This document shows, piece after piece, positions 146 through 47,450 of a DNA stretch of 47,451 nt; position 1 is the first letter of the stretch, and each line of letters opens with the position of its first letter. The stretch lies in contig JBEKZQ010000667.1 in NCBI GenBank assembly GCA_049509675.1, forward strand, positions 1 through 47,451, read 5' to 3'. The notes beneath the pieces were generated by a model, which worked only from the letters and a program-made list of their open reading frames with translations, had not been told where the DNA came from and searched no databases. Position numbers and translations under genes: made by a program. Source of the DNA: Thermoguttaceae bacterium (GTDB lineage: Bacteria; Planctomycetota; Planctomycetia; Pirellulales; Thermoguttaceae).

Positions 146-937
146 GTGAAGAAAAATGCTCGTACCGTTTTGGCCGTGATTGTTGCGGCCGCCGTCTGCT
201 TCGGTGTCGGACTCTTACTCGCTTCCGCCGCCCCGGCGCAGTGCATCAACGGCCAGTGTCCGCTTCAAAATGGCCGCTGCCCGCTGCAATCGCTGTTGCA
301 CCCGCAGGCCCCGGTGGTGAACGTGCAAGTACCCGATTCGCCCACCCCCATCGTGAATAACTACCTGCCGGCTGCCGCACAGCAGGCCGAGGCAAAGCAG
401 GCGGAGGCGAACCCGATCCTGGTGATTCTCGCCGTCCTGGCCGGCGGCCTGGTCACGGGCGCGCTGTGTTTCAAGTCGCGCGTCAACGCGGCCGGCTCGA
501 GCGGCTCCGCCGCCATGCTGCCGATCGCCGGGGCGGGCGGTTTTGATCCGATGTACCTGGTGGCGGCTGCCGCCGGCGCTCTGATCGTCTACGGCATTTT
601 CAAGCTGCTCGACAAGAAGCTGGCCGTCGACGCCGATCTGCAAGAGGCCGCCACGCTGGCCGCGAAGTACGGCCTGGACCATACCACGCGGATCCTGCAC
701 GCCCTGGCCTCCGGCAATCTGCCTGCGGCCGTCGCCGAAGGAAAGGTCTTGCTCCGCGCCTTGCGCGATCCGAAGCAACTCAAGACGCTTTTGCAGGGCG
801 TGGCCGACAACGTGACCACGGCGCAACTGGCCGATCCGGCCGAGGCCCTGGCCCTGGCCAAGAAAGTGGCCGCGCTGTCCACGAGCAACCCGGCCGTCCT
901 CAAGGCCGCCGGACTGGCTGCAATCGCGGCAGCGTGA
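146..937 (+). CDS. Membrane protein of unknown function next to the lysis-like genes (about 3 hydrophobic helices, Cys-rich N-terminal segment)
   Basis: GTG start. Hydrophobic N-terminus TVLAVIVAAAVCFGVGLLLASAA, then CINGQCPLQNGRCPLQ, then helices ILVILAVLAGGLVTGALCF and YLVAAAAGALIVYGIF. GC-rich third codon positions. Confidence 0.6.
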   Translation: MKKNARTVLAVIVAAAVCFGVGLLLASAAPAQCINGQCPLQNGRCPLQSLLHPQAPVVNVQVPDSPTPIVNNYLPAAAQQAEAKQAEANPILVILAVLAGGLVTGALCFKSRVNAAGSSGSAAMLPIAGAGGFDPMYLVAAAAGALIVYGIFKLLDKKLAVDADLQEAATLAAKYGLDHTTRILHALASGNLPAAVAEGKVLLRALRDPKQLKTLLQGVADNVTTAQLADPAEALALAKKVAALSTSNPAVLKAAGLAAIAAA

Positions 938-1027
938 ACAGGTGAAATTGGAGCAGGAGAGCAGGCGAGAAAACGGGGAAGCAGGGTGATCGGTCACCTG
1001 TTCTCCTAATCCCCTGTTCTCCTGTTC
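936..1027. repeat. Inverted tandem-repeat hairpin, CAGGTGA/CAGGAGA family
   Basis: Left arm gaacaggtgaaattggagcaggagagcaggcgag (936-969). Right arm tcacctgttctcctaatcccctgttctcctgttc (994-1027). Confidence 0.85.
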
Positions 1028-1137
1028 TGACCCGCTCGCCGGCGGATTCGGGGAGCACGAGGGCGCGTCTCGCGATGGCACCGTATGGTGAGCTGCAGCC
1101 GCTCTTCTCCGTCCGCCCGCCGGCGAGTCTCTTGGCA

Positions 1138-1167
1138 GGGATTGGGGATTGGGGATTAGGGATTAGG
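1138..1167 (+). repeat. (GGGATTR)n array, G-rich arm only, ending 4 nt before the ATG at 1172
   Basis: gggattggggattggggattagggattagg; four or more G3-4 runs. Confidence 0.9.
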
Positions 1168-1171
1168 CACC

Positions 1172-1516
1172 ATGAACGAGCACATCTACGACGCCTGGCA
1201 ATCCATCCACTGGGAAGCCGTTTACTACTCGCTCGCCGCGCTGGTCGCGCTGCCGGCGGCCGCCGTCGCCGCCTGGAAGCTGCTCCGCGCCGCGTGGCAC
1301 TCGGGGGCCTGGTTCGCCAATGTACTGGACGAACTTCAGCAAATCAAGCAACTGCTCCAGACGGTCGCCAAGATCGGCCGCGAGCAACGGCGGATGCGCG
1401 GACGGCTGACGGACGTCGAGGCCGTGGCCCATACGCCCGCCGGCTGCGGGCTGCGGGATCGCGTAGAGGCCCTGGAACAATCCGCCCCACGCCCGACGGT
1501 CCCCGCCCCACGTTGA
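1172..1516 (+). CDS. Small N-terminally membrane-anchored coiled-coil protein (lysis-accessory candidate)
   Basis: ATG start. Hydrophobic VYYSLAALVALPAAAVAAW, then a helical Q/L/R-rich segment. Its stop overlaps the next start (TGATG at 1514-1518). Confidence 0.55.
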   Translation: MNEHIYDAWQSIHWEAVYYSLAALVALPAAAVAAWKLLRAAWHSGAWFANVLDELQQIKQLLQTVAKIGREQRRMRGRLTDVEAVAHTPAGCGLRDRVEALEQSAPRPTVPAPR

Positions 1517-1851
1517 TGATCGCCGGAATCGTCCACCATCTGAAGCGGCTGCTCGGCGACCGGGGCCTGCGCCCGGGCGCGCGACGCTCGGGGCAGTGGC
1601 CGGCCTTCAGAAGGCATTTGCTCGCAGACCATCCGGACTGCGTAATGTGCGGCCGGCCGGCGACGGAAGTCCACCATGCCGAGGAGCCGTATCACACCAA
1701 TCCGGCCCGCGAACTGGACCCGAAGAACTGCCGCTGCGTTTGCCGCCGCTGTCACGAGCTGGGCGGCCACCTCGACAAGTGGGAGAGCCTGAACCCGACC
1801 TTCGATCGCGACGCGGCGACGTGGCGGCGGAAGATCGAGGCGAGGCCCTGA
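1516..1851 (+). CDS. HNH endonuclease
   Basis: CVMCG...EVHHAEEPYHTNPARELDPKNCRCVCRRCH (Cys pairs plus His/Asn of an HNH fold). Internal ATG of the longer ORF 1075-1851, translationally coupled to the upstream gene. Confidence 0.75.
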   Translation: MIAGIVHHLKRLLGDRGLRPGARRSGQWPAFRRHLLADHPDCVMCGRPATEVHHAEEPYHTNPARELDPKNCRCVCRRCHELGGHLDKWESLNPTFDRDAATWRRKIEARP

Positions 1852-46094: not shown

Positions 46095-46162
46095 AGCGTG
46101 GGGCGTGGAGCGTGGGGCGGGAAGAGAATGACTAAAACAGGAAAACACGAAAGAGAACAGCC

Positions 46163-46534
46163 ATGCACGACGCCAACGGAAATCCGCTGAAAAAGGGCGA
46201 TAAGGTCTTGATCCCATGCGAAGTCGTGGAGGTCTACGCCAGCGAAGATTACTGCGACGTGTCGGTGGAGAGCACGCTCGGTCGACGTCCAGGGTCACCC
46301 AATGGCCGGCCTCGATCGAAGATCGCCGCTCGATGTCCGCACTGCTGGGCAAGCCAGCAGTGGCACCCGAACGGGCCTCGTTCTCCTCCTCTCCGCCGCC
46401 AGACGGCCCCGTCATGTTCGGCGGCGGATAGATCGTGCCCAAAACTTCCTGCGGCAGGCCGTCCTCTTCGCGGGCCTCCTCCTTCGACATCCATGGGCCG
46501 CCGGTGGCCGTGTGCAGATAGCTCATGCGCGTGA
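46163..46534 (+). CDS. Small hypothetical protein; only the first ~45 codons look genuine, and the 3' end is uncertain
   Basis: MHDANGNPLKKGDKVLIPCEVVEVYASEDYCDVSVES (SH3/KOW-like feel). The remainder is antisense to the portal-gene fragment. Confidence 0.3.
   Translation: MHDANGNPLKKGDKVLIPCEVVEVYASEDYCDVSVESTLGRRPGSPNGRPRSKIAARCPHCWASQQWHPNGPRSPPLRRQTAPSCSAADRSCPKLPAAGRPLRGPPPSTSMGRRWPCADSSCA
46331..46533 (-). pseudogene. Inverted duplicate of a portal-gene segment (homologous to 8804-9047)
   Basis: 46411-46533 is the reverse complement of 8804-8926 with 1 substitution. 46339-46373 is the reverse complement of 9000-9034. The segment between the blocks differs. Confidence 0.85.
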
Positions 46535-46650
46535 CGGCCTGAAGGGAAGATTCTCGCCCATCAACACGGCGATGATGGTAAAGGTCAGCGGCGGCGAGGT
46601 GAAGCTCGATCTTTGATCGCCCCACGGTCCGCGGTCCACGCCCCACGATA

Positions 46651-46806
46651 ATGGAAACCTCCCTCCACACCCTGATCGCCAATCCGCACCTGAGAGTGGG
46701 ACTGTTCGTGCTCGGGGCGGCGCTGGTCGGGCTGAGCCATGAGGATCACGAGTGGTGGAAGTTCGCAGGGCTGGCGACACTGGTCCTGACGCACTGGCTC
46801 TTATAG
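46651..46806 (+). CDS. Holin-like small membrane protein (51 aa, two hydrophobic helices), not in the ORF track
   Basis: My translation: METSLHTLIANPHLRVGLFVLGAALVGLSHEDHEWWKFAGLATLVLTHWLL. Ends 5 nt before the peptidase gene. Confidence 0.45.
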   Translation: METSLHTLIANPHLRVGLFVLGAALVGLSHEDHEWWKFAGLATLVLTHWLL

Positions 46807-46811
46807 AGCAG

Positions 46812-47450
46812 ATGAGCAACAGAGCAGGTGAGCAGGTGAAAGGCAGAAAAACAACCATTTTGGCGTTCCGATCTACTGGTCTCCTGTTCGCAATTCTCCT
46901 GTTCTGCGGCTCGGCCGCCGCCGGACCGCCGATCGAAGTGCCCGCCGAACTGCGGCACGCAAACTATCTCGACGCGGCCGGGCGCGGTTCCTGCGGTTTC
47001 GCCGCGGCCGAGGATCTTCTCGTCGCCGAAGGCCGGCCTGATGAGGCCGCCTACTGGCGCGCACACTTCGCCGGGCCGACGTGGATCCGAGACCTGCCCC
47101 GCAAGGCGCAGCTCCGACACCTGGCGTGGGACGCGACGGAGTGCGGCGACGAGGCCTGGTTGCAGGCCGCGAGCGACTTGCACCTGGCGGCCGTGATCGG
47201 CTGGGGCACTTACCAGCAGCGACTATTGCGCGGCCTGGTCTGGATCCCCGGCCACGCCGTGCTATTTCTCGGTTTCGACGCCGACCATGCGTGGTATCTC
47301 GACAGCAACGGACCTGCCGGATACCGCATGCGACCCCGTGCGGAGTTCCTGCGGCTATGGCGGACGGCCGGCGGCGACGGATTTACCTTGATTCCAACCG
47401 ACCGTGGGTTGAAACCCACGGCTACCATCGGGCCATCGCTACGCGATTAG
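46812..47450 (+). CDS. Secreted/anchored papain-like cysteine peptidase (C39-like); endolysin candidate
   Basis: Hydrophobic N-terminus TTILAFRSTGLLFAILLFCGSAAAG. Candidate Cys in GRGSCGFAAAEDL and His in IPGHAVLFLGFD. The 3' end lies in the terminal repeat. Confidence 0.45.
   Translation: MSNRAGEQVKGRKTTILAFRSTGLLFAILLFCGSAAAGPPIEVPAELRHANYLDAAGRGSCGFAAAEDLLVAEGRPDEAAYWRAHFAGPTWIRDLPRKAQLRHLAWDATECGDEAWLQAASDLHLAAVIGWGTYQQRLLRGLVWIPGHAVLFLGFDADHAWYLDSNGPAGYRMRPRAEFLRLWRTAGGDGFTLIPTDRGLKPTATIGPSLRD

Follow-up and report, generated by a model that had tools for sequence, protein, structure and literature searches.

Hairpins with microsatellite arms between the genes of a temperate phage: a probable phage-borne form of a widespread prokaryotic intergenic element

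Contig JBEKZQ010000667.1 of GenBank assembly GCA_049509675.1, assigned to a Thermoguttaceae bacterium, is a stretch of 47,451 nt (hereafter, the window) that constitutes the genome of a tailed temperate phage with a G+C content of about 66%. Many of its gene junctions carry two opposed arrays of an imperfect 7-8-nt tandem repeat, which can pair with each other into a hairpin whose stem is itself a microsatellite. The question raised by this locus is what such elements are, how they came to stand between the genes of a phage, and what they might do there. Comparative sequence analysis gives good support to the view that they represent, in a phage, a class of intergenic element that is widespread among prokaryotes and has barely been studied, and likewise that each element consists of two convergent arrays of roughly 30 nt, built from a 7-8-nt unit and folding into a hairpin of 16-31 bp. 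Taken as a whole, our reading, to which we give somewhat better than even credence, is that these are insertional elements tolerated in the space that separates a stop codon from the following ribosome-binding site, where they would serve as stem-loops between cistrons and not as terminators.

Bases 1-122 of the window are an exact copy of 47330-47451, so that the contig is a 47,329-bp closed circle or a terminally redundant genome with a 122-nt direct repeat; all array counts refer to the 47,329 unique bases. Requiring at least three units and at least 80% self-match, we counted 42 arrays of period 7, against a mean of 0.42 and a maximum of 3 in 100 dinucleotide-preserving shuffles, and 6 arrays of period 8, against 0.45 in the shuffles; periods 4, 5, 10, and 12 showed no comparable excess. 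Array density in the window is about 1.0 per kb, distributed over several unit families. Tandem Repeats Finder places arrays where an earlier, sequence-only reading of the window had put them, with a modal copy number of 4.3-4.4 units that includes families lacking any potential to form G-quadruplexes (G4). A hairpin finder blind to composition and polarity, from whose output we kept candidates with arms that are themselves period-7 or period-8 repeats, yielded 20 hairpins with stems of 16-31 bp, loops of 11-67 nt, and as many as 5 alternative pairing registers; in all, about 22 array pairs can form hairpins of this stem length. Ten of them were folded, giving -32 to -68 kcal/mol and z scores of -3.9 to -6.8, with none of 200 shuffles as stable. 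The hairpins are thus real and far beyond chance, and their stems can pair in several registers, both as the sequence-only reading had proposed. Its five hairpin families reduce to four: families 1-4 stand, and family 5 comprises unpaired clusters of CACGRA cores spaced 8-11 nt apart, which are neither a 7-8-nt repeat nor a hairpin (3 clusters versus 0.005 expected) and are in part a dispersed motif of about 30 nt beginning with CCACGGATGAAACACGGA.

Tandem repeats in a metagenomic contig invite the suspicion of misassembly, and short-read contigs do frequently break at these arrays: five of them (L137, L139, L140, L143, and L144) begin or end exactly at arrays, at positions 13057, 20651, 20680, 20733, 22351, and 22527, and the elements fragment metagenome assemblies. 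The assemblies nevertheless agree base for base. At least six further samples or runs supplied contigs (L125 and L135-L144; JGI, ENA, and Logan assemblies) that are 99.97-100% identical to the window over some 20 arrays, with zero indels in the arrays, and isolate genomes of Xanthomonas, Stenotrophomonas, and Luteimonas show the same architecture. On this evidence we reject an artefact, whose probability we regard as negligible, and disfavor hypervariability of the arrays; the sequence-only reading had called for read-level inspection of the arrays, and the comparison of assemblies comes out in their favor.

The arrays are strikingly concentrated between genes. About 27 of the 31 gaps of at least 25 nt hold one or more; over all 45 junctions, some 60% carry an array and some 45% a paired hairpin, and the 14 tight or overlapping junctions carry none. 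Outside the interiors of open reading frames (ORFs) lie 41 of 48 arrays. Relative to the stop codon, 5' arms begin at -10 to +11 nt; on the other side, 0-25 nt separate the start codon from the end of the 3' arm or of a single A/C-rich arm. Of the single arrays, seven that adjoin start codons are rich in A and C. Placement at gene junctions, as first proposed, accordingly holds for most elements and fails for the hairpin at 10698-10776, which lies inside a gene, and for that at 15549-15643, in the tail of an ORF.

Two further regularities go beyond the published description of such elements in bacteria. One is polarity: almost without exception, and on either strand, the G/T-rich arm stands 5' and the A/C-rich, G-poor arm 3'. 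The 5' arm has more G than C in 20 of 20, 14 of 14, and 7 of 7 hairpins in three phages, and in 44 of 48 hairpins of other families at cellular loci; in IMG/VR, family 1 occurs G-first at 6 loci and reversed at none, and family 2 (TTTTCAG, not G-rich) has 10 hairpins at 6 loci versus zero in the reversed arrangement. Because a G-first hairpin reads G-first on both strands, the property is strand-symmetric, and the original wording, which tied it to the plus strand, is true of 20 of 20 hairpins but describes no feature peculiar to that strand. The other regularity is arm length, which is about 4.3 units or 30 nt not only for G-rich units but also for CTGAAAA, AGTGTTC, and CCTAATC. Arms of this length in families that cannot form G4 make a G4 rationale for "four units" insufficient. 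The four-run G3 rule is satisfied by some arms of families 1 and 3, not by every (GGGATTA)n and (GTGGGGC)n arm as had been supposed; families 2, 4, and 5 contain no G3 run at all, and G4 motifs on both strands number 22 against about 11 expected, roughly twice the shuffled level. Since the families without G runs have the same architecture, arm length, and polarity, G4 formation is not the general principle and cannot be what the families have in common. A suggested resemblance to telomeres was likewise rejected: the contig closes on itself through its 122-nt overlap, and (GGGATTA)n is one unit among many.

How the elements arose becomes apparent from relatives, which we found through homologues of the capsid and terminase genes and then followed at syntenic loci (labeled here by L-numbers). 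Array density is 0.66 per kb in L134, 1.6 in L132, and 1.7 in L133, and is 0-0.05 in L161 (large terminase, TerL, 81% identical), L159 and L160 (75%), and L131; L159 is a prophage within a 2.7-Mb contig. The units differ as well, the arrays of L132 being mostly an 8-mer, GAAAGGGA, and those of L133 using GGGATTTN, AAGACCC, CTGAAMA, and others. Gene order is kept among relatives, and hairpins are merely present or absent. Head-tail junctions that overlap or span 2-15 nt in L131 and L159 correspond to hairpin-filled gaps of 75-110 nt in the window; the junction holding the hairpin at 19730-19791, for instance, overlaps by 4 nt in L131 and measures 2 nt in L159 and 27-31 nt in L133 and L134. The proposal that gene boundaries are systematically marked was therefore overstated, with the closest relatives essentially array-free and one hairpin within a gene; the elements do recur in some relatives and in many bacteria, as the sequence-only reading had thought worth checking, and are nearly absent from the closest kin.

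Copies within the window also resemble one another. Two 85-nt cassettes (33229-33313 and 34107-34191) are 98% identical, three of the four family 2 loops open with CAGCAAGA, family 3 loops have CGATCGCCCC in common, and flank, arm, and the start of the loop match between the hairpins at 18677 and at 32284. Between genomes the loops are completely different. When we scanned IMG/VR for the family 2 loop start (TTCAGYRTTCAGCAAGA) in search of a mobile element, 13 of 14 matches were chance hits in unrelated low-GC contigs, and loop sharing is accordingly confined to the genome. The outcome of a comparison with miniature inverted-repeat transposable elements is that loops are partly alike within a genome and unrelated between genomes; at the in-gene hairpin 10698-10776, no target-site duplication is evident. 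Taken together, absence from the closest relatives, an in-frame copy inside a conserved gene, and copies with common loops and flanks show, at the level of sequence, that the elements were gained by insertion.

One junction behaves differently. Directly 3' of the capsid gene, all 10 relatives have a hairpin, and the sequences of these hairpins are unrelated: seven are built from different microsatellite units, (AGGGATT), (GAGCAGG), (CACGAAGG), (GGGATGA), (GGGGCCN), (TCAGCNA), and (CACGGAGG), two consist of ordinary GC pairing without repeats, and that of L126 is a terminator of the canonical kind, T tract included. Because some hairpin is always there, a structure is retained at least 3' of the capsid gene. 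In L131, a prophage otherwise lacking arrays, there are two opposite copies of a very long hairpin (11303-11687 and 15354-15637) with 8-mer arms of the (CACGGAGG) type and a loop of about 100 nt, located 3' of the capsid gene and 5' of the tape-measure gene. In L134, positions 2428-4986, the portal and MuF-like genes are called as a single ORF of 852 aa, in which the linker joining the two regions of homology consists of (GGCGGAG)n at 3646-3683 and (CAATCCC)n at 3761-3800; evidently, arrays can be read through and fuse genes.

The same hairpins also occur well outside this phage lineage. In a species-representative genome set, the pattern (GGGATTR)3-N15-45-(YAATCCC)3 was found at more than 115 loci, with at least eight phyla among the matches listed; these matches include many contigs of single metagenome-assembled genomes (MAGs) of Pirellulales, Thermoguttaceae, Planctomycetaceae, and Caldilineaceae, members of Chloroflexota, Acidobacteriota, Gemmatimonadota, Bacteroidota, Alphaproteobacteria, and Binatia, and isolates of Xanthomonas, Stenotrophomonas, and Luteimonas. 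The hairpin occurs at 6 loci in IMG/VR, and other high-GC viral contigs combine the same hairpins with unit families of their own at up to 2.7 arrays per kb. At the listed genome loci, going by crude gene calls, the median distance of the hairpin core is 9 nt to the stop and 25.5 nt to the start codon, and the flanking genes are co-directional in 32 cases, convergent in 5, and divergent in 4. An early suspicion that Planctomycetota hosts use these elements is thus correct insofar as Pirellulales, Thermoguttaceae, and Planctomycetaceae MAGs carry the GGGATTR hairpin, and incorrect insofar as the link is not specific to that phylum.

A bacterial precedent exists in the literature. Rehm et al. 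(2015, PLoS One, PMC4692102) described arrays of the heptamer GGGAATC in Xanthomonas, most often of about four units; each genome has 70-75 convergent inverted pairs that are able to form stem-loops, and 89-93% of the arrays are intergenic, mostly between co-directional and rarely between divergent genes; the arrays lie very near or overlap the stop codon and are transcribed, with no function found. The same study mentions GGGGA(C/T)T arrays in Nostoc (PMC4692102). The window resembles the Xanthomonas case in its 7-nt units, its preference for about four of them, and its convergent, intergenic, stop-proximal pairs, and the GGGGATT unit of Nostoc overlaps its GGGATTG/GGGATTA unit. It differs in density, 186 arrays in a Xanthomonas genome of about 5 Mb making about 0.04 per kb, against about 1 per kb in the phage; in having four hairpin families in one genome, among them units unable to form G4 and 8-nt units; and in that in-gene insertion and presence or absence among close relatives can be demonstrated. 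A second precedent (MacGregor 2015, PMC4679880) concerns direct repeats of the heptamer TAACTGA in Beggiatoaceae, cyanobacteria, and Bacteroidetes, which occur intergenically in 2-6 copies a few nucleotides 5' of start codons, where a role as signals in translation or another post-transcriptional step was proposed for them. The single A/C-rich arms of the window (CTGAAAA, CTAATCC, CACGRA) abut starts in the same manner, and CTGAAAA/CTGAACA is close to CTGATAA; unlike the TAACTGA arrays, of which one set among 170 is indirect, the window arrays are mostly paired. Heptamers of the short tandemly repeated repetitive (STRR) type are also said to have been reported from cyanobacteria by Mazel et al. 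in 1990.

Other systems share part of the arrangement. Repetitive extragenic palindromic (REP) elements and the related bacterial interspersed mosaic elements (BIMEs) and REP doublets forming hairpins (REPINs) are short dispersed intergenic palindromes, often arranged as inverted doublets that form long hairpins, with several families per genome; they lie inside operons after stop codons, are tied to mRNA stabilization or attenuation, and are gained and lost between strains. Their arms are not tandem repeats, bear a GTAG or CGTC tag, and are mobilized by the REP-associated tyrosine transposase (RAYT). The elements in the window are likewise dispersed intergenic hairpins of several families that are gained and lost; unlike REP elements and REPINs, their aligned arms and flanks have no GTAG or CGTC tag, and there is no transposase among the window proteins scanned. 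Among phages, T7 offers the clearest precedent for hairpins that punctuate gene boundaries: in its transcripts, as reportedly established by Dunn and Studier, about ten long stem-loops between cistrons are cut by RNase III and the leftover 3' hairpins stabilize the mRNAs. An RNase III site needs a duplex of some 20 bp or more in the RNA that separates two cistrons, which the window's stems of 16-31 bp can supply; their cleavage is putative. The T7 sites are unique, contain internal loops, and are conserved among T7 relatives, unlike the window hairpins, which are microsatellites and not conserved in relatives. Repeated motifs at many gene starts or boundaries of one phage are also known as the promoter-early stem-loops (PeSL) of T4-type phages and the start-associated and extended start-associated sequences (SAS/ESAS) of cluster K mycobacteriophages. 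Those motifs are conserved and tied to promoters or translation starts, unlike the tandem-repeat arms of the window, which also occur on bacterial chromosomes. We rejected the possibility of a CRISPR (clustered regularly interspaced short palindromic repeats) array, since each element is a single inverted pair of microsatellite arms around an 11-67-nt loop and not a series of spaced direct repeats.

Searches of 8 million papers for the literal repeat strings returned only plant telomere primers and other irrelevant matches, and keyword searches for descriptions in phages or Planctomycetes returned nothing relevant; the papers citing Rehm et al. (2015) are G4 reviews and methods papers, none of which proposes a function. 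The arrangement, once thought undescribed, is therefore known from bacteria (PMC4692102), and no description of the phage case turned up in the literature searched. What the phage setting adds is density, several families per genome, clear gain and loss, the polarity rule, and an arm length independent of G4.

On the reading that we prefer, an inserted element would be kept in growth and symmetry by slippage and arm-to-arm (quasi-palindrome) correction, and it would persist only where it leaves genes unbroken, in the main within the stretch from one gene's stop codon to the ribosome-binding site of the next. Scans for sigma-70-like promoters and for terminators covered 1-40 kb of the window and gave no promoter in 1-20 kb, which places about ten hairpins in series inside one operon. 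The late genes would be transcribed as long polycistronic RNAs in which the elements fold into stem-loops between cistrons, taking up positions where relatives have ordinary stem-loops or terminators, always so 3' of the capsid gene. Such stem-loops would most likely form barriers to 3'-to-5' decay, RNase III-type processing sites, or both, and would in this way set the stability of mRNA segments; at 16-31 bp they have the length that double-strand-specific processing needs and should resist exonucleases well. The polarity hints at separate single-stranded roles of the two arms: the G-poor 3' arm, unable to fold on itself and abutting the next start, would provide an unstructured leader, and the 5' arm, which begins 0-10 nt 3' of the stop codon, lies inside the footprint of the terminating ribosome, and that ribosome would open the stem and couple translation of the neighboring cistrons. 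A leader/anti-leader layout of this kind would keep neighbors translationally coupled despite the insertion.

Several observations weigh against this reading. Every functional step in it is one that we infer from sequence. Most junction hairpins are dispensable in relatives and one sits inside a gene, a pattern that tolerated selfish insertion fits as well as function does. Contrary to the leader idea, a start codon is in a few cases adjoined by a single arm that is G-rich (1137-1167, 36091-36126, and 36638-36668), and the hairpin at 32289-32368 stands with one further arm between divergent promoter-like sites, where both may be untranscribed. In sense-strand stem mismatches from three genomes, 15 G.U pairs compare with 26 A.C; because G.U is not above A.C, there is no sequence signature of selection on the sense RNA, and arm correction at the level of DNA would explain arm symmetry equally well. 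That elements are acquired in genomes replicating in particular hosts is a suggestion drawn from the patchy distribution among relatives.

The most serious competitor, which we consider a real possibility of clearly lower probability, is that a host-specific DNA process litters genomes with insertion and slippage products, of which those at harmless sites survive with no function for the phage. Much of the evidence above is what such a process would leave behind: patchiness among close relatives, tight or overlapping junctions in the array-free ones, the in-frame insertion at 10698-10776 and the ORF tail extended at 15549-15643, whole cassettes copied within the genome, unit families that differ from phage to phage, and mismatches with no wobble bias; a self-folding insert would moreover hold a stop and the next start close together, and no regulatory role was found in Xanthomonas (PMC4692102). 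It sits less easily with the hairpin that is always present 3' of the capsid gene, with arrays that are identical in at least six samples and hence do not drift fast, and with a strict polarity and arms of about 30 nt that recur in unrelated units and phyla, for which one needs selection or else a highly specific mechanism of generation. The tandem repeats next to start codons, together with the differences in repeat length at shared sites between Xanthomonas species (PMC4692102), might instead suggest hypermutable contingency loci, at which changes in repeat number switch the flanking genes. We think this very improbable, given that some 20 arrays have no copy-number difference among at least six samples whose contigs differ by 1-4 single-nucleotide polymorphisms, and that the flanking genes are ordinary structural genes; with zero length polymorphism in those samples, phase variation was rejected.

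Terminators or attenuators that work without a U tract, grading transcription along operons (high for the capsid gene and lower downstream, for example), appear unlikely to us, even though the stems are very stable, L126 has a canonical terminator at the capsid junction, L134 and L159 have such terminators beside their capsid and tape-measure genes, and in Xanthomonas the starts or ends of assembled transcripts fall more often at repeats capable of G4 formation than at controls (PMC4692102). Only 2 of the 20 hairpins (34112-34198 and 35885-35974) have a T-rich tail, so that as a class they lack the features of a canonical intrinsic terminator, as the sequence-only reading had concluded for all of them; one hairpin lies inside a gene; and about ten stand in series between 5 and 28 kb with no promoter-like site between them, an arrangement in which the distal tail genes would fall silent even if each hairpin terminated only modestly. 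An ordinary terminator, a 15-bp stem with a T tract at 32927-32960, 3' of a Cro-like helix-turn-helix (HTH) gene, indicates that the host polymerase evidently reads the canonical signal. Rare T-rich tails, position within one operon, and use of a canonical terminator elsewhere thus argue jointly against termination. Still less probable, in our estimation, is a role at the level of DNA, as G4 or i-motif, as cruciform, or as shared linkers promoting recombination and module exchange between phages. GGGAATC-type repeats do form G4 in vitro (PMC4692102), some arms of families 1 and 3 satisfy the G4 rule, identical arms at many gene boundaries and in other phages amount to 20-30 nt of homology, and the missing wobble bias would fit a constraint on DNA. 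However, arm length, pairing, and polarity are no different in families 2, 4, and 5, for which G4 is impossible; G4 motifs are only about twofold above the shuffled expectation; and no recombinant junction was seen among relatives, in which gene order is kept.

One further and more speculative variant, which we hold to be improbable, combines origin and function: an unrecognized, polarity-defined DNA process in certain bacteria of many phyla would produce the hairpins, which a host factor would later read as a general code for operon punctuation and translational coupling. Templated addition of units at both 3' ends of a break, for example, would automatically put the G/T-rich arm 5' on each strand. 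Through such a process, palindromic microsatellites would arise right after stop codons, and any phage replicating in those hosts would be invaded. If true, bacteria and their phages would have in common a new class of genetic element, non-autonomous and governed by one grammar: arms of about 30 nt, the keto-rich one 5' and the G-poor one 3'.

The individual elements are collected in Table 1.

Table 1. Array-bearing elements in the window. In the strand column, a point marks a paired or unstranded element, and + or - a single arm or a cluster.
Element	Position	Strand	Remarks
Family 4 hairpin (GAGCAGGN / NCCTGTTC, 8-nt unit)	948..1030	.	gap 938-1074, 3' of gene 146-937; folded
Single G-rich arm (GGGATTR)x4.4	1137..1167	+	ends 4 nt 5' of ATG 1172
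Family 2 hairpin (AGTKTTC / CTGAAMA)	1855..1929	.	stop +3 nt to next start; -34.1 kcal/mol, z -5.1
Family 2 hairpin, TerL-portal junction	7566..7659	.	first unit holds TerL stop; missing in 81%-identical relative L122/L161
Family 4 hairpin within MuF-like gene 9981-11054	10698..10776	.	z -6.8; 23-codon in-frame insertion relative to L133, L134, L161
Family 5 CACGRA cluster, unpaired	11150..11208	+	cores 8-11 nt apart
Single A/C-rich arm (CTGAAAA)x4.3	13056..13085	+	6 nt 5' of ATG 13092
Family 3 hairpin (GCGTGRR / YYCACGC)	14060..14116	.	overlaps stop codon 14069
Single A/C-rich arm (CCTAATC)x4.4	14772..14802	+	11 nt 5' of ATG 14814
Family 4 hairpin (GAACAGGA / TCACCTG)	15549..15643	.	in non-conserved C-terminal tail of radical-SAM ORF
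Family 5 CACGRA cluster	16026..16050	+	abuts ATG 16049
Family 3 arrays	16828..16996	.	C-rich array 16828-16861 at 3' end of methyltransferase ORF, then hairpin 16914-16989
Family 1 hairpin (AGGGATT / CTAATCC)	18682..18769	.	major capsid stop +10 nt; A8 precedes
Family 3 hairpin	19730..19791	.	stop +1 nt; -54.3 kcal/mol
Family 1 hairpin	20151..20223	.	stop +8 nt; 6 nt 5' of start
Family 1 hairpin	20651..20734	.	stop +7 nt; 4 nt 5' of start
Family 1 hairpin	21814..21896	.	3' of 139-aa gene
Family 3 hairpin	22308..22370	.	directly 3' of stop codon 22307
Family 2 hairpin, 31-bp stem	22449..22527	.	17 nt 5' of ATG 22545; z -6.2
Family 3 hairpin	23218..23320	.	5' of gene in tape-measure position
Single A/C-rich arm (CCTAATC)x4.4	23329..23360	+	3 nt 5' of ATG 23364
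Family 3 long G-rich array (12.7 units) and short C-rich partner	28618..28734	.	convergent junction
Single arm, + strand (TTAGGGA)x4.7	29902..29934	-	C-rich in sense of flanking minus-strand genes
Family 1 hairpin between divergent promoter-like sites	32289..32368	.	A6 precedes; G arm and loop start 90% identical to 18677-18728
Single G/T-rich arm (AGTTTTC)x4.3	32558..32587	+	directly 3' of tRNA-like segment
Family 4 hairpin (core 33017-33066)	33003..33083	.	
Family 1 hairpin, 85-nt cassette	33229..33313	.	98% identical to 34107-34191
Family 5 CACGRA cluster	33578..33606	+	18-mer CCACGGATGAAACACGGA in common with 11150 and 35803
Family 1 hairpin, 85-nt cassette, copy 2	34107..34198	.	stop +3 nt
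Two family 3 hairpins (35723-35792 and 35885-35974; 84% alike)	35723..35976	.	family 5 motif 35803-35826 in between
Family 2 hairpin	36471..36552	.	stop 36468 +2 nt; loop start CAGCAAGAG common to hairpins at 1855 and 22449
Family 3 hairpin, perfect (GTGGGGC)x4.4 and short C arm	43743..43795	.	
Family 5 CACGRA array	44715..44739	+	abuts ATG 44739
Single A/C-rich arm (CTAATCC)x4.3	45007..45037	+	2 nt 5' of ATG 45040
Family 3 G arm directly 3' of stop 46094, then family 5 motif	46095..46152	+	motif 10 nt 5' of ATG 46163; C arm 46616-46647 a possible distant partner
Family 4 hairpin, weaker pairing	46806..46908	.	

The phage that carries these elements has genes recognizable as small and large terminase, portal, MuF-like, prohead protease, HK97-type capsid, head-tail, and tail genes, together with a short minus-strand block at 29.1-32.2 kb, a Cro/CI-like HTH gene, and a ParB-like gene; an integrase-like gene at 41568-42797 gives a weak match only. 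Between the prohead protease and capsid genes, at 13092-16912, lie glycoside hydrolase 130-like, class I methyltransferase, radical-SAM, LexA-like DNA-binding, and N6/N4 DNA methyltransferase genes, an odd content for a head module, whose order differs in L133, L134, and L159 and whose conservation is partial. Megablast of the whole region against 50,697 GenBank phages gave no match, and the one TerL match with a taxonomic name within the phage's own range was to a Pirellulales MAG at 54% identity. Rfam at gathering thresholds matched no family, and ARAGORN called no tRNA gene in the window. The segment 32508-32539 (GGTCTCGGGTTCGAGTCCCGACAGCCCCA) is like a tRNA T-arm with the 3' acceptor end, a place at which ARAGORN calls no tRNA; it may be the attP core used to integrate at a tRNA gene of the host, with the integrase-like gene 9 kb away, and a search for this tRNA-like candidate in IMG/VR found no copy.

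All seven sigma-70-like promoter matches in 20-40 kb cluster at 31978-33225, where divergent TTGACA-16-CATAAT and TTGACA-16-TAATAT sites flank the HTH gene region; this cluster, together with the HTH gene, looks like a lysis-lysogeny switch. With the strong promoter-like cluster at 31.98-33.2 kb and a textbook terminator at 32927-32960, the host machinery appears conventional.

The window contains further repeats. A second, unrelated family of about 56 nt (GGCCGCGTAGCGGCC...CCGTGGGTTTCAACCCACGG) occurs at 12851-12906, 38172-38227, 41262-41317, and 42794-42849, with two small hairpins in each copy; one copy can pair with another in inverted orientation to give a long hairpin at 12852-13050, and the 240-nt gap 12852-13091 folds at -122 kcal/mol. 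A near-perfect palindrome of 51 nt (GGGGACAGTCCCAGTTTCGT...ACGAAACTTGGGACAGTCCCC) is present in two copies that are 96% identical (34402-34452 and 43852-43902), one of them inside a 472-aa ORF. A 45-nt double-hairpin element adjoins family 5 arrays at 11215-11259 and 15933-15977 (87% identity), and two pairs of 112-115-nt segments, 38233-38344 with 39017-39128 and 41353-41467 with 42879-42993, are 83-85% alike.

Over-representation of heptamer microsatellites in some bacteria has been known for nearly twenty years, with no accepted account of their origin or function. A 47-kb phage with about 50 arrays is a smaller and more tractable system than a 5-Mb chromosome, and it adds array-poor close relatives as well as relatives that have different units at the same junctions. 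The comparison made possible in this way narrows the options: the arrays behave as insertions with fast turnover, G4 is not their common denominator, they are unlikely to be terminators, and any model must explain a strict polarity. In practical terms, such arrays break short-read assemblies, create spurious or extended ORFs, and can fuse genes or insert peptides in frame. Should the link to particular hosts be true, the repertoire of units could be used as a host-prediction signal for uncultured phages.

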